Positions 37,019 through 58,241 of a DNA stretch of 64,000 nucleotides are shown piece by piece. A program made the position numbers and the translations under genes. Source of the stretch: Vicinamibacterales bacterium (GTDB lineage: Bacteria > Acidobacteriota > Vicinamibacteria > Vicinamibacterales > UBA8438); NCBI GenBank assembly GCA_965222905.1, contig OZ244976.1, positions 7,301,261 through 7,365,260 of the forward strand, given 5' to 3'. How positions within the stretch are numbered: the first letter of the stretch is position 1; every line of letters begins with the position of its first letter. The notes under the pieces are model-generated. The model searched no databases and had not been told where the DNA came from. It worked only from the letters and a program-made list of their open reading frames with translations.

Positions 37019-37076
37019 GACGCCGGCTTCATAATGCACCTCCTGCAGCACGGCTTCGGGATTCTCGTGCGACCGT

Positions 37077-39282: not shown

Positions 39283-39627
39283 TCAGTCGATCGGCTCCCG
39301 ACGTCGCAGCAGCTCGAGGTTGATCGCGGCGATCTCGTCGAGGAGCTGTCGCGTCCGGCGGTAGTTGGCGACGAACTGCTCGACCTGGCTGCGATGCTCC
39401 TGCGGCACGTAGACCATGACCGGTCGCGCCTTCGGCATGCTGACCGACAGGTACAGCTTCGGACCGTGGCCGATACCGCGCGCGCACTTGCACCCTGGTC
39501 GTCCGCAGCGCTTGAAGCGTTCGATGAGCGAGCCGCGCAGGATGGCCTTCAGGGACGGGAGCTGCCGCAGCAGCATTGTCCGGCGCCTCCGTAACGTACT
39601 CGCCAAGCGTGTTTTCAGACCAGTCAT
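39283..39627 (-). CDS. DUF6788-like protein
   Basis: 'LRGSL....RCGRPGCKC..G.GHGP..YLS...YVP'. Confidence 0.75.
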   Translation of the reverse strand: MTGLKTRLASTLRRRRTMLLRQLPSLKAILRGSLIERFKRCGRPGCKCARGIGHGPKLYLSVSMPKARPVMVYVPQEHRSQVEQFVANYRRTRQLLDEIAAINLELLRRREPID

Positions 39628-39657
39628 ACAACTGGTCTGATACTACACCTCTCGACC

Positions 39658-39976
39658 TCATTTGGGAAGCCCTCGGTCGTCGGCCTGCTCCAAGGCCGCC
39701 AACAGCTCGGTCAGCGCGATGAGCTTCACGAAATCGAGGACATGAGCGCCGCTCGCAAGATCCGCCGCCGCGGCCGGAACCTCTCGATCCGTCCACTCGC
39801 GGGGCACGCAGAACGTACCTCCGGAGGTGCCCTGCAGAATGAGCGTGTCGATGCCGGAGACGCGGCGCGTCTTCAGGATCGGAAACCGCCGACCCCGGAG
39901 TGGATGAAACGGGTGGGTGATCTCAGTCCACCCCGACGGCTCGTTGGGGCGATGTGCAGTTCGCGATGACCGTGGG
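39658..39976 (-). CDS. DUF5372 (Y4bD/Y4pK-like) protein with no start codon ahead of the conserved motif inside the integrated element
   Basis: 'ITHPFHPLRGRRF', 'VPREWTD'; frame is open up to the att junction. Confidence 0.7.
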
Positions 39977-40765
39977 AATGCCCAAGCGGCGCTCGCTTCC
40001 GTCCTTCTTCGGTATCCCAACCGACCGGACCGGAGGCGGGAAGTACGTGCCCGACGACATCCGATTCCAAATCTTGTAGAGATTGTTCTTCAGGTCCTGC
40101 TCGAACATCTCGACAGACTCAGCATCGACGCCAGCTGCTCCGTGGTTCGCCTTGACCCGAGTGTAGGCCTCCCAAACCACCCACTTGGAAATATTGAACG
40201 GCTTCGCGTGGCTCGACGGCTCCTCCCGCGCGCGCGGTTGACCGTCGGGACACGCAGGATGACGCGACCCCTTTGCTCCATCGAGTTTCCCCGACTTCAT
40301 CGCTCGTACGGGTCGCTCCGCCCCTGTGCCTCGCATCGGGCTTCTCATCCTTGGGGGTCGGCCCCTTGGATTTCTCCCTTCACATCGAGGCGACAGGTTC
40401 CCACGTTCCACACAAGGGCCTGGTGCAGGGTCACGCCACCTTTATGCCGGGTGCCGCCCAGCCAAGCTGCAGGCTCCCGCTGGACTTGTCCCGGGTTAAC
40501 GACTCGCCCCGGTTTCGACACCGTCCCTACGCTTTCGACACGTTGCCGGTGGTTCATACACTTCGTCTCCCTGTACCCTACCTGACGCGGTCAAGCCGCG
40601 CCGTTTCCGTGACGCTTACCACCTCGGCTCTTGACCGAAGCAGCGCACGGCGGTTTGAAGCCTCCCCCTGCCGGGCGGCTCCGAGGGGCCTGCCCTCATC
40701 CCTCATGCAGCATGGCTGCAGCTAGGTGGCCATCTCGGCCTCCTTTCCGCGCCTTCGTGGCGCAC
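39975..40765 (-). mobile_element. Group II intron B (class D, RmInt1-like), 5' half
   Basis: 5' GTGCG at 40765; RT N-terminus 'KPFNISK..VWEAY..VKAN.GAAGVD...NLYKIWNRMSSGTYFPPPVR' at 40216-39975; expected start codon reads TCG after GGAGG. Confidence 0.88.
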
Positions 40766-41525
40766 AATCATCGGCGTAACGCACGATGATAGTGTCCCCC
40801 GTAGCCTTTCGGGCGCGCCACTTCTTCTGGAACCAGAGGTCGAGGACATAGTGCAGGTAAACGTTGGCGAGGATGGGTGAAACCACCGCGCCTTGCGGCG
40901 TTCCCTGCAGGTCGTCCTTCCACTCACCATCTTCCATGACGCCGGCGTTCAGCCACTTGGTAATCAGCCGGAGTACCCGTTTGTCCCCTATTCGGTCCTC
41001 GAGAAACCGCAACAGGTGGTCTCGTGAGAGCCGGTCGAAGAACGCCCGGATGTCCGCATCGATTATCCAGTTGACCTTATGCCGTGCAATCCCGAAAGCC
41101 AGGGCGTCAAGCGCATCGTGCGCCCCGCGCCCCGGTCGGAACCCGTAGCTGAACCCGAGAAACTCCGGCTCGTAAATCGGCGTCAGGATTACATCCACTA
41201 CCGCCTTCTGGACGATCTTGTCCTCCAGGGCAGCAATGCCGAGCGGTCGTGTCCCGCCGTCCGGTTTGGGTATTTCAACCCGCCGCGACGGCAGCGCCCG
41301 ATACGCTCCCGTGTGTACGCGTCCGTGCAGGTCGAGCAACCGCTCTTCCAGTCCGTCCTCGTACTCCTTCCACACCAGACCATCCACGCCAGCCGATGCG
41401 GTCTTCTGTAAATCGTAGAAGGCGCACCGCAGCGCGGCCGTCGTGATGTGGTGCAAGAGCGCAGTCAGTTTCTCCTGCGGCTTTCTCGTTGCAGCTTGCC
41501 GTATCCGCTCGACCGCCTGTGACAC
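40766..41525 (-). pseudogene. ltrA: Group II intron RT (class E-like), cut immediately after YADD
   Basis: 'TALLHHI', 'RPLGIAALEDKIVQ', 'GTPQGAVVSPILANVYLHYVLDLWF', 'IVRYADD'. Confidence 0.9.
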
Positions 41526-41643
41526 GCTCTCCCGACCCTGCGTCCGGTACGTGCTTTGGTCTTGCGAATTCCCCTTGGTTGAGGCCCTTCCCTCCAGCAG
41601 CTCCGCAGGTGCTGTCGCTCCCTTGTTCGCCGCTTTCATCGGT

Positions 41644-42483
41644 GTCGGGTCGGAGGAGGCGCGCCCCGCGGGCGCTGGCCTCCGTCCGCCGCTCAAACGG
41701 TACGTGCGGTTTTCCCGCATACCGCTTTCACGAAGACGTCTTCGCGTGATGAGGACCGATGGAGGAATCAAAGAGTGGACCCTCCTCCGGCCCGTCGGGT
41801 TCAGCCAGTCGGCAAGTCTCCTCGGTCGCTGATGTTGGGGTCTTTCACTCATGGAACTGTCCACCTCAGCGCCCTTGCTCATCTCACCGTCCTGTCTGGT
41901 CCCGACCGTCTTCGCCGGCCGCCTTCCCCAACCCACTCGGTTGCCGCCCCCTGACGGTCACGCGGCTTTCACCGCGCTTCAGGTACTATTCGGCCGTCCG
42001 ACTCCTCGACGAGCATCCCTTCCCACTTCGCTCTCGCTTATAGGGTCAGTTGCCGCGGCGCCACCCGCGGACCCGCCGAGGTCTCCCAGGGTCACGCACT
42101 GGTCTTCCATACCGTGCCGCCCGCAAACACCTTGGTGCGGTGGGTGGATGAGATCGCCTTCGCCTCTGTAGTGCAGGCTCGACCTTGCCCCACCTTTGGC
42201 CGACCGGTTCGTCATGGGGTCGCCCCCTCGACTACGGCCCGGTACTGCTCCGCAAACCCTTCGGACCCCACCTCACGGTGGGCGCCCTGTCCTCCGCAGT
42301 TCCGTCGTGGCGGCTCCAGGTCCACCTTGGCTGTGTCCAGCTTTCGCCTGCGTGCCCGTCTAGGTATCTCCATACCTGCCACCTGCGGCCGGCGAGGCAT
42401 TACCCCCGCCTTTGGATACGGCCCCCCTCATCCGGGGGCCGGAGGGACTTCAACCCTCCTGACCAGTGCGCTGCCTGGCGCAC
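41644..42483 (-). ncRNA. ORF-less group II intron D, copy 1 (840 nt)
   Basis: GTGCG start; DV 'AAGCGGTATGCGGGAAAACCGCACGTACCGTTT'; end ...GACCCGAC; removal restores host DIII 'GAGGCAGTAGT|ACCGATG'. Confidence 0.9.
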
Positions 42484-42877
42484 ACTACTGCCTCATCCGA
42501 CTTCTTCATTCCGTGCACCATCGGATACGGAATCCTCCTTCCCTCTGCGGCCCCGGTCCGACTGCCGGGGCAGAATGAAGACCTCCCAGGTCCCAACGAA
42601 GGACGTACGGACGTGCCTGGGTTCTTTGACACCGTGGAGCCCTCCATCACCTCACCTGTCCCGGCGATGTCGGTGTGGCCTTCGACCGCGTTGATAGTCT
42701 CGGCGCTCCAGACCTGCATGTTTTCGATGCTCAATAGCCCTGCCCGTCCGCGCCCCTGTCAACGCTTCACCTGCCGCCTCACAGCGACCGGTGCATGACT
42801 CGGGGTGAAGGTGGTCGGTTACTCCTTCCTTCCGCCGGACTTTCACCGGCCATCCTCCGCCAGTTTGCCTGGCGCAC

Positions 42878-43897
42878 CAACGCTTTCTGCGCAGCACGCT
42901 TCTCCGGCGGCGTCTCGCCCGTCTTCTTGTCCTGCCAGCAGCGACGGCCGCGCTCCGGCTCCGATACGTGACTCCGAACCCCTACCTCGCCGAGCCCCAC
43001 CAACGTCTCGTCGCTGTGATAGCCCTTGTCGGCCACCACCTCTTCGACCCCCGCGCCCTCCGGCTGCACCGCTTCAACCTGTTCGGCCGCCATGATCAGC
43101 GTCTCCGGCAGCGTGGCCGTATCACCGTCCGATGCATCCTGCACCGTCACCGAGACGATGGCGCCCGTGTCCATGTCGACCCCGTGCTCGGCCTTGTGAG
43201 CCAAGTGCGTCCGACCGTCCTTCATCTTCGCGATCTTCGCGTCAGGATCCTGCGGCGATTTCCACTCCTTGTTCGACGTCTTCTTGTTCTTCCGAGACCG
43301 GTCGAACCGAGCCAGCTCCGCCCGCGTCGGCGTCTCCACACCCGACGCTTCCGCCAACCGCCGAATGAACGCCTCGTAGGATTCGCCCGTGTCCCGACGC
43401 TCGATGCTCCGCATCGCCGCGTTCGCTTCCAGCGTCGTCGCATCGATGCCGACCGTCTTCCCGACGACCAGACCCGCTTCAGACAGGCGCTCCAGAACCC
43501 ACGTGAAGACCGCCTCGTGCGTCTCCACGTCGATCAACCGGCGCGTCCGCGACAACGTCGAGTGATCCGGCGCCGACTCGGTCAACTCCAGGTCCAGGAA
43601 CGACCGCAGGCTCAGTGAATCGGCCACCCGCCACGCAATCCCCCGCTCCGAAGACAGGCCCTCGAAGTAGCCGATCAACAGCATCCGGAAATACCGCCCA
43701 GGACGCAGACTCGGCCGGCCCATCCGCGCCGCGTAGAAGGCCGAGCACAACCCTTCCACGAACGCGTCGAACCCGCAGTCCTCCAGGACCCGATTCAGGC
43801 GCTCGAAGAAGGGATGACCGTCGCTCGTCGGAAGGTCCGCCGTTTCCACCCACATCGGCGCCGCCTGTCGCGCCGCCGGTCTCTTGCCCATCGCCAT
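42878..43897 (-). pseudogene. IS1182/IS5-like DDE transposase (DUF772 N-terminus), interrupted by intron C; IS end near 43965
   Basis: 'GRPSL.P..YFRMLLIGYFEG..SER', 'PDHSTLSR', 'IDAT', 'VADKGY'. Confidence 0.85.
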
Positions 43898-44400
43898 GCC
43901 GTTCAGTGTACGAAACTCGACCGCGCCGGGGCCAGGCCGGATCCGCGACTTTCGCCACAGGCTGCTATTGCAGCTCGCCGGATACGGCGTAGCTGCCCTT
44001 CTGGAGTACGACACCCAGCACGTGTTTCTGCGCCGGCACTATCTCGCGAGCGGCGAGGAAGACAGACTCTTGCTTCGTCTCAAGGACACGGCAAGCGTCC
44101 TCTTGCTCTCCGCCGGTGGATCCGACGACTGTCCGGCGGCGATGCGCCGCGACCGGGAAGACACTGTCGCATGTGTTTTTATAACCCGATCTGTGACCAC
44201 GCCGCGTTGGAACCGGCTCGGCACACTGCGATCCGCCTCGCGTGACTACACTACCAACCCACTGGTGTCCCAAGAAAGTCGTCTTGGGTCTGTGTAACTC
44301 ATTGTTTAATAACAAGATACACCGATTTCGAGCAGTCATCGACTTGAATTGTTCCCCGCTCTCAGGAGATGCTCACCGCCGTTCTTCGAGGTGGTGAGAC

Positions 44401-45654
44401 ATGTACTCAGGCAAGCTGGTCTTCGCGCAGGTGATGGATCACCTGCCGATGCACACCTTCCGTCAGGCCGTTCGGCGATACGGCGGCGACCGCTACGTCA
44501 AGTCCTTCCCCTGCCACAGCCAGTTTCTGTGCATGGCGTTCGCACAACTGACTTACCGGGAGAGCTTGCGCGACATCGAGGTCTGCATGCGGGCCCAGCG
44601 GCGCAAGCTCTATCACTTGGGCATTCGCAACACGGTGTCGCGCAACACGCTGGCCAACGCGAACAAGCAGCGCGACTGGCGAATCTACGCCGAGGTCGCG
44701 CAGGAGTTGATTCGCATTGCACGGCCGATGTACGCCGACGAGGACCTGGGACTGGATCTCGACAACACGGTGTTTGCCCTGGACGCTTCGACCATCGATC
44801 TGTGTCTGTCCGTGTTTCCGTGGGCCCCGTTCCGGTCCACGAAAGCCGCGGTCAAGCTCCACACGCTGCTCGACCTGCGCGGCCCGATTCCGACGTTCCT
44901 GCATGTGTCCGACGGCAAAATGGCAGATGTTCACGCGCTCGACCGCTTCATCCCCGAGCCTGGGGCCTTCTATGTGATGGATCGTGCCTATCTCGACTTC
45001 GAGCGCCTGCACGCCCTGGCGGCATTCGGCGCGTTCTTCGTCATCCGCGCAAAGTCCAACACGCGATACCACCGTCGGTACTCTCAGCCGGTCGACAAGA
45101 CGACCGGTCTTCGTTGTGATCAGACCATCGTGCTCACGGGCGCAGATTCCACGTCTCGGTATCCCCAGCCTCTCCGCCGCGTGAAGTATTGGGACGAGTC
45201 AACGGGCAAAACGTTCAATTTCCTGACCAACAACTTCGCGATCCCTGCGCTCACGGTCGCCGAGTTGTACCGGCACCGCTGGCAAGTGGAGCTGTTTTTC
45301 AAGTGGATCAAGCAGCACTTGCGGATCAAGTCGTTCTTTGGGACCTCGGAGAACGCCGTCAAGAGCCAACTCTGGATTGCGGTGTCGGTGTACGTGCTCG
45401 TGGCCATCCTCAAAAAACGGCTGGATCTTCCGGTAAGTCTCTACACAATTCTACAGACACTGAGTTTGACAGCGTTCGAGAAAACCCCGCTTTTACGGCT
45501 ATTCTCTGAGACCGATTACACTTCTCATAGTGACGACGCCCGTAACTTGTTGAATCTAGTGCGCCGTGACAAGGCGCTATTCCTCAGCGGGTGCGAATCC
45601 CGCCCGGCAACTGTCGCTCCAGCCGGTAGCAGTCGGAGCGGACGATGGAGGTAA
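44401..45654 (+). CDS. IS4 family transposase (native end NLLNL|LD* split by intron E at 45558)
   Basis: 'FAQLTYRESLRDIE', 'LDAST', 'MDRAY', 'YRHRWQVELFFKWIKQHL' (YREK). Confidence 0.92.
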   Translation: MYSGKLVFAQVMDHLPMHTFRQAVRRYGGDRYVKSFPCHSQFLCMAFAQLTYRESLRDIEVCMRAQRRKLYHLGIRNTVSRNTLANANKQRDWRIYAEVAQELIRIARPMYADEDLGLDLDNTVFALDASTIDLCLSVFPWAPFRSTKAAVKLHTLLDLRGPIPTFLHVSDGKMADVHALDRFIPEPGAFYVMDRAYLDFERLHALAAFGAFFVIRAKSNTRYHRRYSQPVDKTTGLRCDQTIVLTGADSTSRYPQPLRRVKYWDESTGKTFNFLTNNFAIPALTVAELYRHRWQVELFFKWIKQHLRIKSFFGTSENAVKSQLWIAVSVYVLVAILKKRLDLPVSLYTILQTLSLTAFEKTPLLRLFSETDYTSHSDDARNLLNLVRRDKALFLSGCESRPATVAPAGSSRSGRWR

Positions 45655-47264
45655 CGACATCGGCTGAAGCACTCCGACGACAAAGGGCCGCCCTGGGCGG
45701 TTCAGCGACCACGCGGGCTACAACGCGAGTAAACGCCGAGCAGGCCTCGAAACGGGTAACGCGGAAGCCGACCCGCCTGGATTACGGGGAAGGCTGCCAG
45801 CGGTCGGGAAGCGAGCGACGCGAGCACCGACCGGTTCCGCCGGGGTAATGGCGGCAGCACGCGTGGACGAGGGGAATGGACGCAACACGGGAAGCCCTGC
45901 CGGCGGCGTGGCACGCGCCAACCGACGACCCGTGAGGGCAAGGTCGGGCCGGCCAGGGTGGCGGAGAAGCCCGTACTGTGCGCCAGGCAGCGCACTGGTC
46001 AGGAGGGTTGAAGTCCCTCCGGCCCCCGGATGAGGGGGGCCGTATCCAAAGGCGGGGGTAATGCCTCGCCGGCCGCAGGTGGCAGGTATGGAGATACCTA
46101 GACGGGCACGCAGGCGAAAGCTGGACACAGCCAAGGTGGACCTGGAGCCGCCACGACGGAACTGCGGAGGACAGGGCGCCCACCGTGAGGTGGGGTCCGA
46201 AGGGTTTGCGGAGCAGTACCGGGCCGTAGTCGAGGGGGCGACCCCATGACGAACCGGTCGGCCAAAGGTGGGGCAAGGTCGAGCCTGCACTACAGAGGCG
46301 AAGGCGATCTCATCCACCCACCGCACCAAGGTGTTTGCGGGCGGCACGGTATGGAAGACCAGTGCGTGACCCTGGGAGACCTCGGCGGGTCCGCGGGTGG
46401 CGCCGCGGCAACTGACCCTATAAGCGAGAGCGAAGTGGGAAGGGATGCTCGTCGAGGAGTCGGACGGCCGAATAGTACCTGAAGCGCGGTGAAAGCCGCG
46501 TGACCGTCAGGGGGCGGCAACCGAGTGGGTTGGGGAAGGCGGCCGGCGAAGACGGTCGGGACCGGACAGGACGGTGAGATGAGCAAGGGCGCTGAGGTGG
46601 ACAGTTCCATGAGTGAAAGACCCCAACATCAGCGACCGAGGAGACTTGCCGACTGGCTGAACCCGACGGGCCGGAGGAGGGTCCACTCTTTGATTCCTCC
46701 ATCGGTCCTCATCACGCGAAGACGTCTTCGTGAAAGCGGTATGCGGGAAAACCGCACGTACCGTTTGAGCGGCGGACGGAGGCCAGCGCCCGCGGGGCGC
46801 GCCTCCTCCGACCCGACACCGTTGAAGCTGGGCAATGCCGGCCGAGGGAAGGGGCTTCAGGTGGAAGGGATGGCGAAAGGGAACAGGCTCCGGGAGTGGC
46901 CGAACGGCCTATCACCCCGATGAATGAGCAGGAATGCCAGACGTCATCACATGCATAAGCGAAGGGGACGACCCGCGCGGTCGCCGTCGTCAGGGCGTCA
47001 ACAGGTCTGACGACGCACCGGCCGGCCAACGCCAGGGTGTGAGCCGGGTGCCACGGCTTGCAAGACCCGCCCGCTGGTCGCAACTGGAAAGCCCGTGTGC
47101 GAGCCGCATGATTCCACTGGAGAGCCCGGTGCCGGAAATCGGCACGCCGGGTTCGGAGAGCGGGGGGAGGAAACGTGCCCATGGGACTCGGACTGCGGCC
47201 CGGTGCGAAAGCGCCGGCAGAGCCACCGACTCCCTACTGGTTACGCGCCTCCCCTCGACTCTAC
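45559..47264 (+). ncRNA. ORF-less group II intron E (866 nt without the nested intron)
   Basis: GTGCG start; EBS1 TGGATT (45778-45783) pairs with exon AATCTA; DV at about 47121-47156; end ...ACTCTAC; removal restores the transposase stop. Confidence 0.88.
45978..46817 (+). ncRNA. ORF-less group II intron D, copy 2 (840 nt)
   Basis: Near-identical inverted copy of 41644-42483; removal restores DIII 'GAAGCCCGTACT|ACCGTTG...GGGCTTC'. Confidence 0.9.
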
Positions 47265-48766
47265 TTGGACTAATTCCTGGGACACTAGTGCTACCAACCT
47301 GGAGCTGTCTTGTCTGCACGCCGATGCGACGGAAAGATCCGGACAGACGATACATCGCGCCAAAGGCGGCGGTCACAATGGTGCGCGGAGTTCGGTGCGG
47401 AGACCGCTGTCTTGGCTGATCACTCCGTCGGCCGGTCGTGACCGCCGACGCTTGTCCGCTGGTGGAGCAAGGCGCTCCAGACGGCGCGCCGCTCCCTCTC
47501 GTCGAACGGAACTCCATATCGCCACGGCTCGCTCTGCGGCCCGCGACCGGGCGGCGCACACCCTTCCCAATTTCGTGTGGGACGGAGGGAATGCGAACGG
47601 GCGGATCCATCCTTACCCGCTAGGGCCCGGACTATTCATGGCGACCGTGACTTGGCCCCTGGGAGGCGGCACCGGAACCGGACTCGGTCACGGACAACGG
47701 GCAATGAGCAGTGGGCGGCCGCTGGAACGTCTCAACCGCGTGTGGCAGGGTGGTTGAGCGCCGAATGGACGTGATGACGGGTGCCGCCGGGGAGGACAGC
47801 GCACACTTCCCCCGTTGCGGGCGGTTGGCAGCCTCCGTCGGTCAGCGATGCGGCGCTCGCCGAGCGGCTATCCGGCGCGCGCCCCGAGCGCGAACGCGAT
47901 ATGCCGCCACGCCGCCAGGTCTGGTGTCGCGCGCGGCAGGCGCAGGACGATGCGATGCACCGAGCACACCACCTGGACGCCGAGCTTCAGCAGCCGGTCG
48001 CGCAGCCAGGGCACCTGCGCGCGGGCGCACGCGGTGTCGGCGGCGCGCAGCCGCAACTCCTGCATCAGCACGTAGGCCGCCGCCGTCAGCAGGACGCGCA
48101 ACTGATTCGCCGAAAACGTCTGGCAACTCGTGCGGTCGATCTGTAGGGCCTTCAGTTCCTTGATCCGGTTCTCGGCGTCCCCGCGGGCGCAGTAGACCTT
48201 CTCGTAGAGGAAACGCGGCGTCTGCCGCATGTTGGTCACGACGAAGCGCGGATTGTCCCGCGGCTCGCGGTCTCGGTGGCGGACGACTTCGGCCTTGGTC
48301 ACCACGCGGCGCGCGTGGTTCCACGTGCCGGCCTGGTACTCGTTGGTCTCGGTGTAGACGTGCTCGGTCTGTTCGTTGCGCCACGTCCGCGCCCGCGCCA
48401 CCAGCATGGCCGGCTCCGGCGTACCGCTCCAACACCGCGTTCTTCGCCATCGCGACCACGTAATCGAGCCGCGGCTGCGCCTCCAGGAAGTCGAAGACCG
48501 CCGGGCTGGCAAAGCCCCCGTCGAGCCGAACGAGAATGCGCGCCCGCGGAAACGCCCGGCGCAGCCGCGGCAGCAACCGCGACAACAGCCCGACCGTCCC
48601 CTCGGAGGCGACCGCCTTGCCGTGCCGCAACAGCGCCGCGCACAGATACTGCTCGGATTCGCGGTCGAAGGTCAGGAAGCCAAGCAGCGGCAGGTAGCAC
48701 CAGTTGTCGTAGTAGCCGTTGAAGAGCGTGTACTGCTGCGCCCCGTGCGTCGGGTCGTCCGTCGGG

Positions 48767-50343
48767 GGGCGCATTCCCGATTTCCCGGAGCAGTGTGTAG
48801 GCAAAGATGGACTGTGAGGCTGGGGGAGGTTGAGCCGGTCTTCGGACAGACGGGGAGGGTGGTACTGGACATTACGGCTCGGACTGCCCATGATGGTGCG
48901 TTGAAATGGACAAGACCATCGACACCCCGAGCCGCGAGATCGATCTTGGCAACATTCCCGTCCACCTGCGCACTGCCCTCCGGCGGGCGCTGGAGTTGGA
49001 GGCGCGTGCTCCAGCGCCCAGGTCGGCAGAGGAAGCGGAGCAGTGCGAAGAGCAGCTGCGGGCCATCGCGGACGAGTTCTTCGGCGCCCTCCTCACCCCC
49101 GTGCTGCAACGCGCGGTGCGCTCCGCCGCGGTTGGCGACGCGGCGAGCGCCCTCGTGCGCCACCTGCCCCGGCGGATGCGGAGCGACGGCCTGGAGACCG
49201 TCAACGTTCGCACCTCCCGGGGCACGACGGTGCCGGTCACGACGCCGTACTACCGCGAGAAACACGCCCGTCGGGCGAAGCGGAGGCCGGGACTCTACCC
49301 CGCCTTGGTGGTGCTGGGCATCTACGACCGGTGCACGCCGAAGCTGGCCTCCGATGCAAGCCGCGCGGTCGCCATGCTCAGCTCGCTGGCCGAAGCGCAG
49401 GCGCAGCTCCGCTCCGAGGGCATCGCCCTGGATATCAAGACCCTCCGCTCGACCGCCTATCGCTACGCTGCGCGGGCCCGAGCGGCCCAGCAGAGCGCGG
49501 CGTGCGGCCTGCTGGACCGCGTGACCGGCAAGCGGGTGGTCGTCTCCCTCGACGGGGGCCGCGTCCGTGTGAGGCGCAAGAAGCGTGGCCCCAAGACGAA
49601 GAAGGGGCGCAACCGATTCCATACCGACTGGAAGGAACCGAAGCTCCTCATCCTGTACGTCGTCGGCGACGACGGGCGACCGTCTCAGACGTGGGCCCCG
49701 ATCATCGACGGCACGCTCCGGGGACCGGAGGCGGTCTTCGCCCTGCTGTTGTCGTACGCGCGGCAGATCGGCCTCAACGCCGCTGACAAGGTGCTCTTCA
49801 TCGCCGACGGCGCGCCCTGGATCTGGCGACGCCTCCAGCGCCTCATCGCCGCGCTCGGGCTCTCGCCGACACAGGTGCTGGGGCTGATCGACTTCTATCA
49901 TGCCGCCAAGCAACTCTCCGACGCGGTCAAGCTGCGCCGCTGGAGCGCGACGCAACGCACCCGCTGGCTCAACCGCACGCGGGGGCTGCTCAAGCGAGCA
50001 CGCGTGGACGAGGTGATCACGGCCCTGCGGGAGCTGTGCCGCGGGCGCACGGCCGGCAAGATCCGCACGCACCTCAACTACTTCCTGAAGAACCGTCATC
50101 GTTTCGCCTACACCACAATGGTCGGGCTCGGGCTTCCGCGGGGCAGCGGCGCCGTCGAAAGCGCCATCCGTCGCGTCATCAATCTCCGCATCAAGGGCGC
50201 ATCCATCTATTGGCTACCGGAGAGCGTCGACGCGATTCTTCTCCTGCGGTCTTTCTATAAGTCCGGCAGATGGAACTGTTTGCAGCGGATGGCCATGACG
50301 CCGGTGGGTGTGAGCGCGTGACCGGGAAATCGGGAATGCGCCC
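48767..50343 (+). mobile_element. Mutator-type IS (ISKra4/ISLre2-like), complete
   Basis: Perfect 22-bp IR GGGCGCATTCCCGATTTCCCGG; 8-bp TSD CCGTCGGG (48759-48766, 50344-50351). Confidence 0.92.
48906..50321 (+). CDS. Mutator-type DDE transposase
   Basis: 'SLDGG', 'IADGAPWIW', 'IDFYHA', 'GSGAVESAIR'. Confidence 0.9.
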   Translation: MDKTIDTPSREIDLGNIPVHLRTALRRALELEARAPAPRSAEEAEQCEEQLRAIADEFFGALLTPVLQRAVRSAAVGDAASALVRHLPRRMRSDGLETVNVRTSRGTTVPVTTPYYREKHARRAKRRPGLYPALVVLGIYDRCTPKLASDASRAVAMLSSLAEAQAQLRSEGIALDIKTLRSTAYRYAARARAAQQSAACGLLDRVTGKRVVVSLDGGRVRVRRKKRGPKTKKGRNRFHTDWKEPKLLILYVVGDDGRPSQTWAPIIDGTLRGPEAVFALLLSYARQIGLNAADKVLFIADGAPWIWRRLQRLIAALGLSPTQVLGLIDFYHAAKQLSDAVKLRRWSATQRTRWLNRTRGLLKRARVDEVITALRELCRGRTAGKIRTHLNYFLKNRHRFAYTTMVGLGLPRGSGAVESAIRRVINLRIKGASIYWLPESVDAILLLRSFYKSGRWNCLQRMAMTPVGVSA

Positions 50344-50545
50344 CCGTCGGGTCCAGATCGATCGTGATGCACCGCGCCCGCCCGTCCAGACGGCGGCGAT
50401 GCCGCGCGATGACCCGCGTGGCCAACTCGTCGGCCATGCGGTAGAGCGCGCAGCCGTTGACTGCGTTCTCGAACCGCGACAGCGTCGGCTGCGACGCCAG
50501 GCGCTCGCCCGAAACCGGGTCTCTGTCGAGCAGCAGCTTGGGCTG

Positions 50546-50554
50546 TGCTACAAT
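50546..50554 (+). promoter_or_regulatory. Extended -10 element TGcTACAAT, probable original promoter of the 51918 operon
   Basis: About 40 bp upstream of the ISAzo13 insertion point; removing the IS places it about 70 bp before the SD/ATG. Confidence 0.4.
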
Positions 50555-50597
50555 GCTTCCCATGCGTATCGGGATCCAACCCGTGATTCTAAACTAA

Positions 50598-51890
50598 GGG
50601 CACTGCGCTAAACTAGTTTGCTACCTGTGGGTTTTCTGGTCATACTGGAGGCATGAAGCGAGACATCGAGCTGGAAGCGACCCTTGTCGCGAAGTATGCG
50701 GCGGTCGGTCCCGTGTTGGACGAGCGCAGTCGCCGCCGGTGGGCGGCGGCCGAGTCGCTCGCCATCGGCTACGGCGGCGACGCGGTGGTTTCGTCGGCTA
50801 CCGGTGTGGCTCGGGAGACGATTCGCAAGGGGCGCCGGGAGATTGCCCGCGACGAGGCGCCGACGGACCGCATTCGACGCCCTGGCGGCGGACGGCCCCG
50901 CATCCAGCAGGATCAACCCGGCATCCAGGCCGCGCTCCAAGCGCTGGTGGATCCGCTCACGCGCGGCGACCCGACCTCGCCGCTGCGCTGGACGTGCAAG
51001 AGTCGCGCGAAGCTGGCGGCGGCGCTGACCGAGCAGGGGTGGCGGGTGAGTTCGACCACTGTGGGCCGGCTGCTGCACCGCCTGGGCTACCGGCTGCAAT
51101 CGCCGCGCAAACGACAGGAAGGCGCCACGCATCCGGACCGCAACGCGCAGTTCGAGCACATCAACCGGACTGCCGACGAGCATCTGAGCGCCGGCCAGCC
51201 GGTGATTTCGGTCGACACGAAGAAGAAGGAGCTGGTCGGGAACTTCAAGAACGGCGGGCGGGAATGGCCGCCGAAGGGCACGCCGCCAGCGGTGCTGGTG
51301 CATGATTTCCCGACCGACGCCGAGGGCAAGGCGATTCCGTACGGCGTCTACGACATGGCGCGCAACGAAGCCTGGGTGAGCGTGGGCTGGGACCACGACA
51401 CACCGGCGTTCGCGGTGGCGTCGATTCGCCACTGGTGGGGCCAGATGGGCTGCGGCGCCTACCCTGAGGCCACGACCCTGTTCATCACGGCCGATGCGGG
51501 CGGGAGCAACGGGTATCGGTTGCGCGCCTGGAAGCATGAGCTTCAACAGTTGGCCGACGAGACCGGACTGACCATCGAGGTGAGTCATTTTCCACCCGGC
51601 ACCAGCAAGTGGAACAAGATCGAGCACCGGCTCTTCTGTCACATCACGGCGAACTGGCGCGGCACCCCGCTGACGACGTATGAGACCATCGTCGACCGCA
51701 TCGGGAACGTCCGGACGGCAACCGGGCTCCGGGTCCGGGCCGAACTCGACGCCGGGCAGTACCCCACGGGCGTTACGGTGACCAAGGAACAGATGGACGC
51801 ACTCGCGCTGGTCCGCGATGAGTTTCACGGGGAATGGAATTACAAACTGTTACCCCGACCAAGTTGAAGACTTTATATCGATCACTGTCC
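50598..51890 (+). mobile_element. ISAzo13 family element
   Basis: Imperfect ends GGGCACTG / CACTGTCC flanked by TAA on both sides (3-bp TSD). Confidence 0.75.
50653..51867 (+). CDS. ISAzo13 family transposase
   Basis: 'ISVDTKKKELVGNFKN', 'ADAGGSN', 'PPGTSKWNKIEHRLF', 'HGEWNY'. Confidence 0.93.
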   Translation: MKRDIELEATLVAKYAAVGPVLDERSRRRWAAAESLAIGYGGDAVVSSATGVARETIRKGRREIARDEAPTDRIRRPGGGRPRIQQDQPGIQAALQALVDPLTRGDPTSPLRWTCKSRAKLAAALTEQGWRVSSTTVGRLLHRLGYRLQSPRKRQEGATHPDRNAQFEHINRTADEHLSAGQPVISVDTKKKELVGNFKNGGREWPPKGTPPAVLVHDFPTDAEGKAIPYGVYDMARNEAWVSVGWDHDTPAFAVASIRHWWGQMGCGAYPEATTLFITADAGGSNGYRLRAWKHELQQLADETGLTIEVSHFPPGTSKWNKIEHRLFCHITANWRGTPLTTYETIVDRIGNVRTATGLRVRAELDAGQYPTGVTVTKEQMDALALVRDEFHGEWNYKLLPRPS

Positions 51891-51917
51891 TAAAGGCGGA
51901 CATACAGGAGGAGCCCT

Positions 51918-52607
51918 ATGAGATCTCGTTTTCCCGCGCTCGTTGCCGCAGTTGCGACAGCTGTGTTGTTGATCCTGGCCACCACGAGCTTTCTGGAGGC
52001 ACGAGGAAACCGGTGCTACCTTGGAGCACACTTCTACAACAAGGAGCGAAAAATAGGACGTGGTGCCTATATCAGGGAGGAATGCAGTACCATGCTCCCT
52101 GATATACATAGTGCTCCATTTGGAAACTGGGGCGTCAATTCAGCATGGGGAAGCAGGAAGGACGGGAATCAGTTTCGGGGGTGGGAGCCAAATAGGAGAT
52201 ATACACAGAGACATTGGAACTCCTGCACGCCGCAGTTTCCGCCACCTCATAACGACTACTACAACGCCGAAGGCGGCTGGTCTCAAGAATGGAACCCGAA
52301 ATCAACGGAGCATTACGCGTCGGGGTGGGTGCTGCGCGGAAGTAGAGGGTTGTCCTGCAGGTACATACATGACGGGAGTGTCTGGACTTCCAGGAACAAC
52401 TACATGAAGCTCTATGAGCTGGACCAGTACGATCGTGACGAAAAGGTTGCGACGCTTAGCTACGGGAACGTTCACGTGGAGATTTCGTGCAACGGCGCGT
52501 GGGATTGTAGTGGCGAGTCAGACTGGGCATCGCCAACATACGTCAATCCGCAACTCTCCAAGGTGTCGGCCAAGATCCAGATTCGCGTGAAATCGGAGAG
52601 GAAATAG
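51918..52607 (+). CDS. Secreted hypothetical protein, Trp/Tyr/Cys-rich
   Basis: AGGAGG SD; signal peptide; visibly lower GC than flanks. Confidence 0.75.
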   Translation: MRSRFPALVAAVATAVLLILATTSFLEARGNRCYLGAHFYNKERKIGRGAYIREECSTMLPDIHSAPFGNWGVNSAWGSRKDGNQFRGWEPNRRYTQRHWNSCTPQFPPPHNDYYNAEGGWSQEWNPKSTEHYASGWVLRGSRGLSCRYIHDGSVWTSRNNYMKLYELDQYDRDEKVATLSYGNVHVEISCNGAWDCSGESDWASPTYVNPQLSKVSAKIQIRVKSERK

Positions 52608-52609
52608 GC

Positions 52610-53493
52610 GTGATGAAGAGACTCATGAGCTGCGGCGCGTTAGTGTTGGCAATTCTGTTCTCTGGAACTGTGGTCCAGAATCAGCGCGCGTCGAAGGTGC
52701 AGGGCGTTGTGCTCGCAGCGCCCTCCGGCGGTCTGTCGTCAAGTCCCCAGCCATTGGCTAATGCCCGCGTGGAATACAAGGAAAGGGGTGGCGCCGACGT
52801 GCAAGTGACGACGACAGACGCCAAAGGGCACTTCGAATTCCCATCCGGCCGGCGGGGTGTCGTGACGGCAAGCACGTCCGGGCTTGCAGCCATCAGCGTG
52901 AGATGGCCGTCACGGGAAGGTGGCGCGCAACTGCGCATAGTGCTCCCGCCAGCGGCGGCGGTGCGCGGGACGCTGTTCGATCTGGTTACGAAGCAGGCGG
53001 TCATGGACGGAGCCGTGAGGCTGACGGTAGCTCATTCGGCGAATCTTGTTTCCGACGCGGCACTTGTGGAGAACGGGCGTTTCGAGTTCAAGGGTCTTCC
53101 GCCGGGCCCGGCCGTCCTCGTGGCAACCGCAGACGGCTTTGCGCCGCACTTCAGCACGCGGACCCTCGAGAAGGGTACGGTTCATGACGCCCGAATCGGG
53201 CTGCTGGATGGGTCGGTGCATGGCAGCGTGCTCGATGCCTCCGGTACGCCCGTGAGCGGCGCGGGCCTTTTGTGGCCTACAATTCTTCTTTCGTGGCTGG
53301 AGAAGTCCTCGTGAGTTTCGTTGGCGGTCGTGACCTGACGGGGAATGATGGGACATTTGCGGTCAACGGCATCGTGCCGGACACGGAGTTTCAGCTCTAT
53401 GCAGAAAGCGAAGACGGCCGCCGATCGGAAGTAGTTACGCTTACAGCCAGTCCGGGCCTGCCGCTTGAGGGGGTTGTCCTGCGCATGAGATAG
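52610..53493 (+). pseudogene. Carboxypeptidase regulatory-like (transthyretin-fold) repeat protein, frameshifted near 53270
   Basis: 'TTTDAKGHFEF', 'NGRFEFKGLPPG', 'TGNDGTFAVNGI' repeats across two frames. Confidence 0.7.
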
Positions 53494-53536
53494 AAGCTGA
53501 GTCATCGAGATGGCTATGGGAAGAGGAGGGTGATGA

Positions 53537-54127
53537 ATGCACTTGTGCCTCGTGCCCATCCTGCTGCTCGTAGTCGGCTTCACGATGGGGCCGGCGGCCG
53601 GACCGGCCGCGGCGCAGCAGCGTGACCGGATCGAGGTCCAGGTCGGCGGCGGATGGGTCTGGCATTACTTGGCACCCCGTCACCTCGGGAGCGTTGAAGT
53701 CGGCCTCGCGCTGTGGGTGAGTGACGGGTGGGGAATCGCGGTACGGCGCGTGGTCGCGCCCGGTGACAGCCTCGCTCGGCCGGCTGACCGTCCGAGCGAC
53801 AACCGCTGGGCCGGCGACGGAAACGTGCGGTACACCACCGTAACGGCGCGGTACCGCCGGCTCTTGCGCGGCGATCTTGAGCTCAACGTCGGGTTCGGAC
53901 TGCTAGCGCAGGGGGCGGTTGACCACTTGCTGACACCGCACGAGACTGGCCGGCTCCAGGATTTGCAGCGCATAACAGAAGCGTATCGCGGCGGAGGTGC
54001 GCTTGAACTGCTGGTGGGGCGCAAGGTGTTCGGCAGCGTCGGTGTCAAGGGTGGGTTTACGATGGCCAGGTACACCGATCTCTATGTGAACACGAACGTG
54101 GTCGGCCTAGTGGCGATCGGGTTTTAG
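53537..54127 (+). CDS. Small outer-membrane beta-barrel protein
   Basis: Signal peptide, amphipathic strands, terminal 'VAIGF'. Confidence 0.6.
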   Translation: MHLCLVPILLLVVGFTMGPAAGPAAAQQRDRIEVQVGGGWVWHYLAPRHLGSVEVGLALWVSDGWGIAVRRVVAPGDSLARPADRPSDNRWAGDGNVRYTTVTARYRRLLRGDLELNVGFGLLAQGAVDHLLTPHETGRLQDLQRITEAYRGGGALELLVGRKVFGSVGVKGGFTMARYTDLYVNTNVVGLVAIGF

Positions 54128-54204
54128 TGCTGCGCCACGTCATAATCTTCGGACACGCACATGGGTTTACGGCGCGCGGTGAGTCGCCCGGGGGAGTCTC
54201 ACCT

Positions 54205-54375
54205 GGACTCTACCTCGCCTTGGTGGTGCTGCCCATCTACGACCGGTGCACGCCGAAGCTGGCCTCCGATGCAAGCCGCGCGGTCGCCATGCTCAGCTCG
54301 CTGGCCGAAGCGCAGGCGCAGCTCCGCTCCGAGGGAATCGCCCTGGATATCAAGACCCTCCGCTCGCCCGCCTAT
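54205..54375 (+). repeat. 171-bp near-identical copy of 49290-49460 (transposase internal fragment)
   Basis: Direct sequence match 'GGACTCTACC...CGCCTAT'. Confidence 0.9.
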
Positions 54376-54825
54376 GGGTGCGGCTCTTTTTCATAGATTG
54401 CTATCTCGCTCATTCATAAGGGTTTATGTCCGAGGACACTCCCTCTTCAGTGCGTTTTGAGGGGTGACAGCGTCCGGCGAGCGCCCCATCCGCCTCTTTT
54501 CGGGCCGCCGCCCGACCCGACCACGACGCCGGCACGCGCCGGTCCCCCTCAGGCGCGCTCCCTTCTGGACATTCGCGGGGTGCGGCTCTTCATAGAGGAT
54601 TTTTCGCCCTATTCATGGGCTCTTTTGCCCGCGGATGCGTCTCCCCAGTGGCCATTTCGGGAGGGACATCAAGCAGGCCAGCGCCGTACCGGCGTCTTTT
54701 CGGCAGCCAGCCGAGCCTCGTCACGGCGCCGAACACCTTCGGTCTTCTCCCCGACAGGCGCGCTCCCTTCTGGACATTCGCGCGGCGTTCTGGTACGGTG
54801 CCGTGGGAAGGGAGGCAGACCTGCG

Positions 54826-55370
54826 ATGGCTGTGACGACAGGATTCCAGGGACGTACATTCGACGTGCCCCGAACCGGCGTCCCGTGCATCGATCCCCCG
54901 AGGCGAGCCCCGTGCGCAGCGGCCGATGCTGTCTTCGCGGATGCCAAAGCCTTCCTCTCGTCCAGCGAAGCCCGGCAGATGAGCGAGAGCGAACTCGAAC
55001 GGGAACTGCACCGGCGGGGCCAGGAGTTGGTGCGCAAGCTCCTGCAAGGACATCGCGACCAACGCAGCCCGAAAGAGGCTGCTGGTCCGGCCGAGGGCAA
55101 GGGCACCAGCGGTGTCGAGTGCTCGGAGCCGCGCGAGCACGAAAGCCACGCCGAAACGGCCTCCGGCACGATGCAGGTTGTGGGTCTGGGCTGCGCGCGG
55201 CGCGGTCACGACGGCTTGCATCGGCTCGATGCCGCGCTGAACCTGCTGCCGGAGCGCTACTGGGTCGAGATGCGCCGCCGCGTGACCATCGCGACCGCCT
55301 CGCGGGCACCACCGCGTACGCCCTGGAAGCCACCGTGGTACTCGACATCATCCACGTGGCAGCGGCGACG
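54826..55370 (+). pseudogene. Degenerate copy of the ISKra4 transposase 5' part
   Basis: 'KAFLSSSEARQMSESELERELHRRGQELVRKLLQGH' parallels the 55600 ORF, then deleted and frameshifted. Confidence 0.8.
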
Positions 55371-55599
55371 CGGCGTGCGGTGCTCGTCGCCGGCTCATCG
55401 AAGGGCCTGTCGGCATTTGGTCCGCGATCCGATGGGAGCCGACCGGCGCACGGTGACACTTGGCTCCACAGTTGCGGCGGTCCGCAGCCGCCGCGGGTAG
55501 CCGGAGCCTGGATGCGTACTGAGGAGGAACCTGGCCAGCGCGGTGCTGGCGCGCGGCCTGGACAAGCGGCGGTTACGGGGGTTACCGGAGCGTTGAGCC

Positions 55600-57210
55600 A
55601 TGCAAGTTGTTCTCCGCCGCACCGCTCCACCCGCCCCGGCGCCCTATGCGGCGGCGGAGGCTTCTTTCGCGGAGACCAAAGCCTACCTTTCTTCGCGCGA
55701 GGCCCTGCAGATGCGTGAGAGCGACCTCGAACGGGAGTTGAACCGGCGTGGTCAGGAGTTGATGCGCAAGCTCCTGCAAGGGCACCTCGACCAACGCAGC
55801 CCGGGGGAGGCGGCGGGTCCGGTCGAGGGGGCCGACGGCGTCGAGCGTTCGGAGCGGCGGCTGCACGACCGGCAGTTGGAGACGACCTTCGGGACGGTGG
55901 CGGTCGAGCGCCTGGGCTACGCGCGGCACGGTCACGACAGTCTGCATCCGCTCGATGCGTCGCTGAACCTGCCGGCTGAGCGTTACTCGCTCGAGGTGCG
56001 CCGCCGGGTGGCCGAAGCGGCCGCATCGCGGTCGTTCGACGAAGCGCTGTTCGAGCTGTCTCGCCATAGCGGGGCCCAGGTGCCCAAGCGTCAGGCGGAA
56101 CAGTTGGTCGCTCGCGCGGCCGAGGACTTCGACGCCTTCTACGCGGCGCGCCGAGCGGCGGCGGGCGAGCCGGTCGCTGACGAGTCGGTTGTGGTGCTCA
56201 CCTTCGACGGCAAGGGCGTGGTGCTGCATCACGAGGACCTGCGCGAGGCGACGCGCAAGGCGGCCGAGAGGCGCCGGCGGCAACGCGAGCAGCTCTCCCC
56301 GTTCAACCGCCTGCGGCCGGGCGAGAAGAAGCACGCCAAACGCATGGCGACGGTGGCCGCCGTCTACGCGGTCGCGCCGTTGGTGCGCAGCCCGGAGGAT
56401 TTCCTGCAGAGCCTGATGCCCCGACAGCCGGCGGCCAAGGCCAAGAATCGGGCCAAGACCGCGGCGGTGCGTCCTCGCCCGGTGGCCAAACGGGTCTGGG
56501 CGAGCCTCGAACACGATCCGGCCGAGGTGGTCGCCGAGGCGATGCTGGAAGCCGAGCGCCACGACCCGGAGCGCGTCAAGCGCTGGGTCGTGCTCGTCGA
56601 CGGCGCCGAGACGCAACTCGCCCTCGTCGAAGCGGGCGCCGCCGCCTACGGCGTCGACGTGACGGTGATACTCGACATCATTCACGTGGTCGAGTACGTC
56701 TGGAAGGCGGCGCACGTGTTCCATCGCGAGCGGAGCCCCGACGCGGCGCATTGGGCCTGGACGCGCGTGCAGAGCATTCTCGAGGGCAAGTCCAGCAAGG
56801 TGGCCGCGGCGATGCGGCGGGCGGCGACCGTCGCAGGCTTGTCGAGCGACACCCGCAAGCCGGTCGATACGTGCGCCGACTACCTGCAGAAGTACGCGCC
56901 GTATCTGCACTACGACCGCTACCTCGCGGCGGGCTATCCCATCGCCACCGGCGTGATCGAAGGGGCGTGCCGGTACCTGGTCCGCGACCGGATGGAGTTG
57001 ACCGGAGCCCGCTGGCGGCTGGTCGGCGCCGAGGCGGTCCTGAAGCTGCGGGCGCTACGGGCCAGCGGCGACTTCGATGCGTACTGGGACTTCCACGAAG
57101 CGCGCGAGTACGAGCGGAACCACGCCCAGCGCTACGCTGACGGGATAGCACCGCCGGTCAGCGAGCCGCCCCCATCGCCCTCCTCACCTCGCCTTCGCCG
57201 GGTCAAGTAG
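55600..57210 (+). CDS. ISKra4 family transposase
   Basis: 'LTFDGKGVV', 'LVDG', 'LDIIHVVEYVW', 'PIATGVIEGACR.LV.DRM'. Confidence 0.92.
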   Translation: MQVVLRRTAPPAPAPYAAAEASFAETKAYLSSREALQMRESDLERELNRRGQELMRKLLQGHLDQRSPGEAAGPVEGADGVERSERRLHDRQLETTFGTVAVERLGYARHGHDSLHPLDASLNLPAERYSLEVRRRVAEAAASRSFDEALFELSRHSGAQVPKRQAEQLVARAAEDFDAFYAARRAAAGEPVADESVVVLTFDGKGVVLHHEDLREATRKAAERRRRQREQLSPFNRLRPGEKKHAKRMATVAAVYAVAPLVRSPEDFLQSLMPRQPAAKAKNRAKTAAVRPRPVAKRVWASLEHDPAEVVAEAMLEAERHDPERVKRWVVLVDGAETQLALVEAGAAAYGVDVTVILDIIHVVEYVWKAAHVFHRERSPDAAHWAWTRVQSILEGKSSKVAAAMRRAATVAGLSSDTRKPVDTCADYLQKYAPYLHYDRYLAAGYPIATGVIEGACRYLVRDRMELTGARWRLVGAEAVLKLRALRASGDFDAYWDFHEAREYERNHAQRYADGIAPPVSEPPPSPSSPRLRRVK

Positions 57211-57278
57211 CTCTTGCCATGCCGCTCGCAGCCCCTCCTGGACCCCTCTGGACCGCCGACGCAAAAGAGCCGCACCCC

Positions 57279-57742
57279 TTCCCACTTCGCTCTCGCTTAT
57301 AGGGTCAGTTGCCGCGGCGCCACCCGCGGACCCGCCGAGGTCTCCCAGGGTCACGCACTGGTCTTCCATACCGTGCCGCCCGCAAACACCTTGGTGCGGT
57401 GGGTGGATGAGATCGCCTTCGCCTCCATAGTGCAGGCTCGACCTTGCCCCACCTTTGGCCGACCGGTTCGTCATGGGGTCGCCCCCTCGACTACGGCCCG
57501 GTACTGCTCCGCAAACCCTTCGGACCCCACCTCACGGTGGGCGCCCTGTCCTCCGCAGTTCCGTCGTGGCGGCTCCAGGTCCACCTTGGCTGTGTCCAGC
57601 TTTCGCCTGCGTGCCCGTTTAGGTATCTCCATACCTGCCACCTGCGGCCGGCGAGGCATTACCCCCGCCTTTGGATACGGCCCCCCTCATCCGGGGGCCG
57701 GAGGGACTTCAACCCTCCTGACCAGTGCGCTGCCTGGCGCAC
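57279..57742 (-). ncRNA. ORF-less intron D, copy 3 (5' part; nested in copy 4, truncated by ISKra4)
   Basis: GTGCG at 57742 directly after copy 4's own DIII '...GGCCGAATAGT'. Confidence 0.88.
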
Positions 57743-58241
57743 ACTATTCGGCCGTCCGACTCCTCGACGAGCATCCCTTCCCACTTCGCTCTCGCTTATA
57801 GGGTCAGTTGCCGCGGCGCCACCCGCGGACCCGCCGAGGTCTCCCAGGGTCACGCACTGGTCTTCCATACCGTGCCGCCCGCAAACACCTTGGTGCGGTG
57901 GGTGGATGAGATCGCCTTCGCCTCCATAGTGCAGGCTCGACCTTGCCCCACCTTTGGCCGACCGGTTCGTCATGGGGTCGCCCCCTCGACTACGGCCCGG
58001 TACTGCTCCGCAAACCCTTCGGACCCCACCTCACGGTGGGCGCCCTGTCCTCCGCAGTTCCGTCGTGGCGGCTCCAGGTCCACCTTGGCTGTGTCCAGCT
58101 TTCGCCTGCGTGCCCGTTTAGGTATCTCCATACCTGCCACCTGCGGCCGGCGAGGCATTACCCCCGCCTTTGGATACGGCCCCCCTCATCCGGGGGCCGG
58201 AGGGACTTCAACCCTCCTGACCAGTGCGCTGCCTGGCGCAC
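57743..58241 (-). ncRNA. ORF-less intron D, copy 4 (first 499 nt, up to its DIII target site)
   Basis: Matches 45978-46476; 5' exon ...GACCTCGTAGT. Confidence 0.88.

Follow-up and report, generated by a model that had tools for sequence, protein, structure and literature searches.

A 64,000-nt stretch of the genome of a Vicinamibacterales bacterium (assembly GCA_965222905.1, contig OZ244976.1, positions 7,301,261 to 7,365,260), called the window hereafter, carries several copies of M, an 840-nt group II intron without open reading frame (ORF) found inside domain III (DIII) of other group II introns. M derives from P, an intron encoding a reverse transcriptase (RT), and the lineage formed by this parent and its ORF-less derivatives very probably retrohomes into the DNA encoding DIII of other group II introns. 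The data presented here document the identity of M as a group II intron, its P ancestry, its site specificity, the location of its sites in DIII, the covariation of its exon-binding sites 1 and 3 (EBS1 and EBS3) with the target and the wide distribution of the lineage.

The ORF-less intron M, its parent P and their insertion sites

The copies of M in the window and the domains (DI to DVI) recognized in the copy on the plus strand are as follows.

45978..46817, plus strand: full copy of M in DIII of host intron E; starts with GTGCG, 99.88% identical to the 840-mer
41644..42483, minus strand: full copy of M in DIII of host intron C (repeat finding and blastn, 100%)
57743..58241, minus strand: outer 5' fragment, positions 1-499 of an M/P-type intron (blastn, 99.4%), in unique non-intron DNA, with a 5' exon ending in ...GACCTCGTAGT
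57272..57742, minus strand: inner 5' fragment, positions 1-471 (blastn, 99.2%), directly after position 499 of the outer fragment
46465..46545, plus strand: predicted DIII of M, basal helix CGGCCG with CGGCCG, self-target between 46476 and 46477 (minimum free energy (MFE) fold, self-insertion junction, architecture like that of the host DIIIs)
46579..46695, plus strand: remnant of the RT frame within DIV, comprising codons 1-39 of the parental intron-encoded protein (IEP), deletion junction near 46689 (tblastn, alignment of M with P)
46732..46817, plus strand: DV and DVI of M (RF00029 alignment, with AGC triad, GAAA loop and a bulged A located 7 nt before the 3' end)

All four near-identical copies announced in a preliminary description of this DNA were found by blastn of the 840-mer and by searches for inverted and direct repeats, but two of them are merely 5' fragments with a different EBS1 loop, ACTATGG, of the type found in P. 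Two details were also amended: blastn places the end of the inner fragment at 57272 instead of 57279, and the sense strand of M is the plus strand for 45978-46817 and the minus strand for the three others. The two full copies differ at 1 of 840 positions. The inner fragment lies exactly behind position 499 of the outer one, and thus results from insertion of such an intron into its own DIII. An insertion sequence (IS; 55800..57271, minus strand), of which the genome has more than 45 near-identical copies, truncates this inner fragment at position 471 with its inverted repeat, beginning at 57271. A decayed intron was considered as the 5' flank of the outer fragment and ruled out, this flank being unique and having no Rfam match at E <= 1. 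The whole genome contains eight full copies of M, five at 100% and three at 99.88% identity, and neither blastn nor nhmmer found more distant relatives of M in this genome beyond these eight copies and the two fragments. Occupied and empty copies of the host introns differ by exactly 840 nt: a complete intron is nested in another with exact boundaries, as in a twintron.

M has the 5' end GTGCG and terminates in AC, and its DV-DVI region aligns in Rfam with the AGC triad, the GAAA loop and the bulged A. The MFE fold predicts six domains, with DII at positions 399-482 of M, DIII at 488-568, DIV at 569-753, DV at 757-790 and DVI at 793-836, and puts the start of the ORF, at position 602, within DIV.

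The full-length parent encoding the RT, whose existence had been suspected, is present in a genome of the same genus (G009) and absent from the genome studied here. P is 96% identical to M over positions 1-499 and 93% over positions 500-712, and carries about 1.18 kb of additional sequence coding for a 445-aa RT/maturase (RT/X) without endonuclease domain (TIGR04416, 388 bits for a cutoff of 300). Among solved structures, this RT is closest to the group IIC RTs 6ar1 and 7uim (232 and 220 bits), ahead of TeI4h (169) and LtrA (141). Alignment of M with P reveals a 39-codon N-terminal remnant joined to the 3' end of the ORF. This remnant, 'WLNPTG...HSLI', had rightly been taken for a piece of RT: it corresponds to residues 1-39 of the G009 IEP, with 92% identity in all eight M copies (tblastn). 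Since the N-terminus of the P protein survives in every copy, M is an ORF-deletion derivative. Judging from these alignments, it is a non-autonomous group II intron with a complete ribozyme, from whose RT/maturase gene about 1.18 kb was probably lost in one internal deletion. Searches by blastn, nhmmer and tblastn for P or a P-type RT, full-length or diverged, found none in this genome; when the full-length P protein was used in tblastn, the top matches were RTs of other introns (31-39% identical).

Ten insertion junctions are seen in this genome: six in introns of family C, two in family E, one in M itself and one in unique non-intron DNA. Nine of the ten lie 5-6 nt inside the basal helix of a group II intron DIII, in the 5' strand of an internal loop. 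This is not due to chance, as 1719 GTAGTA cores, and 12 sites with the longer motif CGGA-N7-GTAGTA, are left unoccupied. The flanks quoted in the preliminary description proved exact (the slash marks the insertion point): GAGGCAGTAGT/ACC in C, GAAGCCCGTACT/ACC in E and CGGCCGAATAGT/ACC in M. The intron sites share a common architecture, made of a J2/3-like (G)UC-G-GA, the basal helix, (C)RUAGU/ACCG-N-GAA, inner helices, GGAGGGAAGG and the 3' strand of the basal helix. Of 31 host sites, 25 are bracketed by a fully paired basal helix, whose sequence takes 20 different forms, and compensatory changes occur within families (in E, for example, GAAGCCC with GGGCTTC and GAGGTCC with GGACCTC). This helical domain with a covarying basal helix lies between DII and the ORF-bearing DIV and is therefore DIII, as had been claimed. 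M occupies six of the 10 copies of C and two of the 11 copies of E that have both flanks.

The same habit was found in other genomes. G009 contains at least 40 full copies of M (40 of 110 candidates scored). Among the 40 listed, 19 are inserted in E, 11 in C, five in P or M, two in a fourth host family (D1D4-4, 118 bits) and three in non-intron DNA, i.e., 37 of 40 are in DIII. Together with the nine junctions found here, these copies uphold the earlier expectation that other genomic copies would occupy the same site. Among the 40 candidates scored in each search for host copies, at least 17 E copies are contiguous across the site and thus empty, to be compared with the 19 insertions in E known from the flanks of M, and at least two C copies are empty, to be compared with the 11 insertions in C. 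G009 also harbours nests such as M[1-499]-P[1-499]-M-P[500-...]. Self-homing recurs there at two loci (L014 and L031), where up to three copies are nested at position 499 (M 1-499, P 1-499, a full M and the remainders).

P itself is inserted in DIII of three kinds of host: E, M and a fifth family (D1D4-3, 122 bits). In two other genera, an ORF-less relative 79% identical to M (genome G019) and a P-like intron (genome G029) are likewise found within the DIII of a host. A search with the P protein, in one genome per species, retrieved 79 loci in 37 assemblies (66-100% identity) from Vicinamibacterales, Terriglobia, other Acidobacteriota, Binatia, Planctomycetaceae, proteobacteria, Gemmatimonadaceae, Nostoc and Caballeronia. 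A strict pattern of the J2/3-DIII motif occurs in 44 of 56 unique 5' flanks, from 32 of the 37 assemblies, and several of the 12 flanks that fail it are visibly DIII-like. Furthermore, the Rfam D1-D4 match of the host ends 60-145 nt upstream of the first base of the inner intron at 17 of 20 loci scanned (136 nt for host C in the window). The proposal that a non-autonomous ribozyme targets a conserved motif across intron classes is thus borne out and can be extended: as the RT-encoding parent also homes into DIII, this habit is a property of the whole widespread lineage and not of the ORF-less M alone.

The two host introns of the window are delimited as follows.

45559..45977, plus strand: 5' part of host intron E (DI, DII, 5' strand of DIII); GTGCG at 45559, Rfam D1D4-4 match of 77.9 bits at 45585-45728
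46818..47265, plus strand: 3' part of host intron E (rest of DIII, DIV, DV, DVI); RF00029 match of 43.3 bits at 47120-47235, family similarity to about 47265
42484..42877, minus strand: 5' part of host intron C up to the M insertion; Rfam D1D4-6 match of 171 bits at 42620-42843
40722..41643, minus strand: continuation of host intron C beyond M, with the remainder of DIII, DIV and a truncated RT frame that covers RVT_1 positions 1-156 of 205

Without M, intron E is an ORF-less element of 867 nt with at least 11 copies in the genome. The copy at 45559-47265 is placed at the 3' end of a transposase gene (DUF4372 and DDE_Tnp_1; 44401-45654) that belongs to an IS. Intron C sits in another IS (DUF772 and DDE_Tnp_1, ORF 42779-44014), intron-free copies of which exist elsewhere. 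Comparison with these copies shows that its 5' exon ends at 42878; its 3' exon was sought and is absent from the window. Downstream of M, a further nest spans 35857-40697 on the minus strand: the RT frame of C ends at RVT_1 position 156 of 205 and is followed by a D1D4-2 match of another intron (40580-40697, 109 bits), an ORF for a 684-aa large serine recombinase (37077-39131), a second RT/maturase (36017-37051) and a DV-DVI match (35857-36008).

Outside the window, introns of family C are nested in family E at a fixed position (about E 160) at three loci (G000:C2 653770, 6657882 and 7465756). One of these loci is a three-level nest, with M inserted in C as well as in E. Another element seemed to occupy the DIII site of a distant C-like intron (G000:C2, about 7.3955-7.3971 Mb). 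It is actually an IS a few nt upstream (about 7395580-7396700), with inverted repeats and a 9-bp target duplication (AAATCAGAC), and the DIII site, GTAGT/AGC, is empty. This IS is related to that of the window by a matching inverted repeat and about 76% identity over the sole aligned stretch of 232 nt.

Target recognition by M and P

Two features of the plus-strand copy of M bear on the choice of the target.

46289..46294, plus strand: EBS1, with the sequence ACUACA, in the Id3 hairpin loop (hairpin 46284-46300); it corresponds to the variable hairpin loop in the alignment with Rfam D1D4-3
46334, plus strand: candidate EBS3 (U357), which would pair with the first base of the 3' exon (A), in a covarying alignment column

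The sequence ACTAC at 46289-46293, within the loop GCCT-GCACTACAG-AGGC, had been described as complementary to GTAGT and as resembling an EBS1, and both statements hold. In the hairpin 46284-46300, the loop GCACUACAG aligns with the variable loop of D1D4-3 and the stem covaries in the relative from G019 (GCCC with GGGC). Moreover, the loop covaries with the 5' exon across relatives. Over 31 unique pairs of EBS1 and intron-binding site 1 (IBS1), a mean of 5.0 of the 6 positions are paired versus 4.41 +/- 0.10 after shuffling, and none of 2000 shuffles reaches the observed value. The most informative pairs are ACUGUG with CACAGU, ACUUUG with CAAAGU and GAGAUG opposite CAUCUC (6 of 6). In the same way, ACUAUG in P fits CAUAGU and ACUACA in M fits GUAGU, while the inner fragment of the window, which has a P-type EBS1, is located at AUAGU.

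On the 3' side, position 357 of M is the sole one of about 440 alignment columns that tracks the first base of the 3' exon (U-A, A-T and C-G; 15 sequences), and this nucleotide may be read as a candidate EBS3. No EBS2-IBS2 pairing was found, and positions -7 to -12 vary among targets. Three candidates for EBS2 were tried and rejected: the loop GGUCGGCC; the sequence CUCAUCC, apparently a strand of alpha-alpha' since its partner is GGAUGAG of the 5' hairpin; and UCCGAAGG, which is conserved in all relatives, including a retargeted sublineage, without covariation with positions -17 to -12. Even non-intron and retargeted sites preserve a distal GUC-N-GA at about -18 to -13, which suggests a further contact, possibly made by the RT.

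The retargeted sublineage was found in one Acidobacteriota assembly (loci L108-L113 and L123). Its introns encode a P-like RT (71% identical), carry the EBS1 GAGAUG and lie at CATCTC/T in a repeated non-intron sequence. These sites retain GTCCGA at -18 to -13 and represent a natural retargeting away from DIII.

From these observations, the following mechanism can be proposed. The target would be the part of the host DNA that specifies the 5' strand of the DIII internal loop, ...GUC-N-GA [basal helix] (C)RUAGU/ACCG-N-GAA.... The 6-nt EBS1 loop (ACUACA in M, ACUAUG in P) would pair with the last 5-6 bases of the 5' exon and the single EBS3 base, U357, with the first base of the 3' exon (A). The distal GUC-N-GA, at -18 to -13, would correspond to J2/3 of the host and appears to be recognized too, by some part of the ribonucleoprotein (RNP). 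Ribozyme function would hold this motif constant, so that the same intron could enter several families and itself. The supply of targets would thereby be harmless and self-renewing.

Homing, passive copying and splicing

An indication that M is removed from a host transcript comes from three metatranscriptome runs of two studies. Each provides one contig in which position 45977 is joined exactly to 46818, skipping 840 nt with the ends GT..AC; the order of the splicing events is not readable from such contigs. The joined contigs have depths of 102, 87 and 38, compared with about 7-24 inside M. Their alleles are those of this copy of E rather than of its 97%-identical empty paralogue, and the junction was not seen in one probable DNA run. 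This hints that M is spliced out of E in vivo. The splicing of the host would depend on prior removal of M, as had been put forward.

Several observations weigh against retrohoming of M and P into DIII or against parts of the evidence for it. M falls just below the gathering cut-off of RF00029 (39.4 bits for 40, at 46732-46817), and also below that of D1D4-3 (RF02001; 25.8 bits for 32, at 46179-46365, i.e., M positions 202-388), while RT-encoding relatives of the lineage pass RF00029 with 40.2-45.8 bits. Twelve perfect CGGA-N7-GUAGU/A sites are empty (eight in non-intron DNA, three in E copies and one in a copy of the fourth family), and M occupies imperfect IBS1 sites (GGAGU, AUAGU and GUACU), C hosts with a mismatched IBS1 among them. 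Pairing alone thus does not explain the choice of sites or the preference for DIII, and an attempt to explain occupancy by the quality of IBS1 gave no clean relation. Some relatives pair poorly, such as the introns with the EBS1 AUUAUG at GUACU sites. Groups of insertions with identical flanks (three copies here, up to seven in G009) may be composite or IS-borne, so that independent insertions would be fewer than copies. The RNA contigs are metagenomic, and a DNA allele devoid of M could be present in the samples. Finally, this genome contains no cognate RT, so that M may not be mobile in it at present.

Ten P copies with the EBS1 AUUAUG were found in one Vicinamibacterales assembly (L056-L067), at C-type DIII sites that end in GUACU and leave an internal mismatch. 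In these copies, either mismatches are tolerated or the introns spread as parts of composites.

The groups with identical flanks raise the question of whether a few ancient insertions in DIII were simply multiplied as the host introns and ISs copied themselves, without any repeated site-specific homing. Three copies of C with M, carried by a multi-copy IS, have 400-nt flanks on either side that are 100% identical, and G009 contains blocks of three to seven copies with identical 40-nt flanks. Not every copy is thus an independent event. However, the inner copies are 99.9-100% identical, whereas hosts of the same family are only 89-97% identical to each other. M is present in at least six distinct host sublineages of this genome, at least three of which include near-identical empty copies, and these empty sisters of occupied introns speak against passive copying as the sole cause. 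M is furthermore found in four to five unrelated host families and in itself. The non-intron sites (one of 10 here and three of the 40 listed in G009) share IBS1 and the distal motif, and EBS1 covaries with the site over 37 assemblies. Passive copying without homing is therefore judged quite unlikely.

A more serious doubt, although we do not favour it, is that M in this genome is a stranded, immobile and possibly non-splicing relic, whose insertions are knock-outs of host introns rather than working twintrons. The genome lacks a P-type RT and its only copies with a P-type EBS1 are the two truncated fragments. G009 differs in this respect, since P is present there alongside the M copies and could act as a helper in the same cell. 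Host C of the window is broken, with a truncated and interrupted RT. Against a relic stand the RNA contigs in which M is exactly removed from this allele of E, the intact DV, DVI and EBS elements, and the near-complete identity of the eight M copies, which indicates a very recent spread.

Entry at the level of RNA, by reverse splicing into a folded host intron that presents the DIII loop and subsequent copying to DNA, would account for a preference for DIII stronger than short pairings explain and for the perfect non-intron sites that stay empty, host introns being abundant and structured RNAs. Insertions into non-intron DNA carrying the linear motif alone nevertheless exist, the retargeted sublineage obeys simple EBS1 and EBS3 rules, and DNA retrohoming is the established route of bacterial group II introns (Mohr 2010, PMC2882425). 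Such an entry is thus very improbable. Retrohoming of the P/M lineage into DIII-encoding DNA might also be taken further. P and M would then be obligate hyperparasites of group II introns that read the catalytic-effector loop of DIII beyond linear pairing (e.g., through its J2/3-DIII context) and make splicing and mobility of the host conditional on their own excision. We regard this extension as unlikely. If it were true, there would be a hierarchical layer of control among selfish ribozymes, able to silence whole intron families in a genome.

Relation to known nested introns

Homing of introns into introns is already known. In Thermosynechococcus elongatus (Mohr, Ghanem and Lambowitz 2010, PMC2882425), the ORF-less TeI3 is inserted in DIV of TeI4, where it separates the first two ATGs of the IEP gene. 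The TeI3 copies are identical to each other, in contrast to the diverged TeI4 introns around them, and a helper RT acts in trans. As for TeI3, ORF-less derivatives of an RT-encoding intron enter here one conserved site of other group II introns. Unlike that of TeI3, which lies in DIV of one related family, the site of M belongs to DIII, a part of the ribozyme, and is found in at least four to five families (D1D4-6, -4 and -3). Furthermore, the RT-encoding parent P targets the same site and the lineage extends over several phyla. In Methanosarcina acetivorans, homing into the RT motif RYADD leads to multi-level nests in which intron sequence is a perpetual homing site (Dai and Zimmerly 2003, summarised by Zimmerly and Semper 2015, PMC4424553). 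M resembles these introns by its repeated site-specific homing into other group II introns and the resulting multi-level nests, but their target is the protein-coding RT ORF, whereas that of M is DNA coding for a conserved RNA structural motif.

In the chloroplast twintrons of Euglena (Copertino and Hallick, cited in PMC4424553), a ribozyme domain of the outer intron is split by the inner intron, and in a Trichodesmium twintron (Pfreundt and Hess 2015, PMC4649490) the inner intron lies in DI. The insertions of M are comparable in this respect, and ordered splicing is expected from such an interruption. However, the Euglena and Trichodesmium twintrons are single locus-specific cases, whereas the M lineage reuses a fixed structural target across families. 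Some similarities to group IIC can also be noted, since the RT of P is closest to those of this group (GsI-IIC RT, 6ar1; 7uim) and has no endonuclease domain, while the intron has a short IBS1, a candidate EBS3 and no EBS2 detected. Group IIC introns typically lie directly behind a terminator or attC hairpin and have a reduced DI. Unlike theirs, the ribozyme appears full-sized (about 655 nt without DIV), and the similarity of the RT makes membership in group IIC no more than possible.

No description of a DIII-homing intron lineage was found in the literature on bacterial or acidobacterial twintrons, although Simon et al. 2008 and Dai and Zimmerly 2003 might hold one. What differs here is the use of a conserved ribozyme motif of DIII as a target and its reuse across intron families and phyla. 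Two papers (PMC4028801, PMC8919778) indicate that published pipelines for intron collection leave out or overlook nested introns, and the lineage may have escaped notice for this reason.

The known targets of intron homing are protein-coding sequences or DIV sequences of close relatives, whereas the target of M and P is DNA encoding a ribozyme. As it encodes a conserved piece of this ribozyme, one lineage can parasitise several intron families across phyla. The host cannot freely mutate the site, which makes these introns a natural system in which hyperparasitism, ordered splicing and target recognition by EBS1 and EBS3 only can be studied. Homing of M and P also explains the multi-level nests found in intron-rich genomes such as this one.

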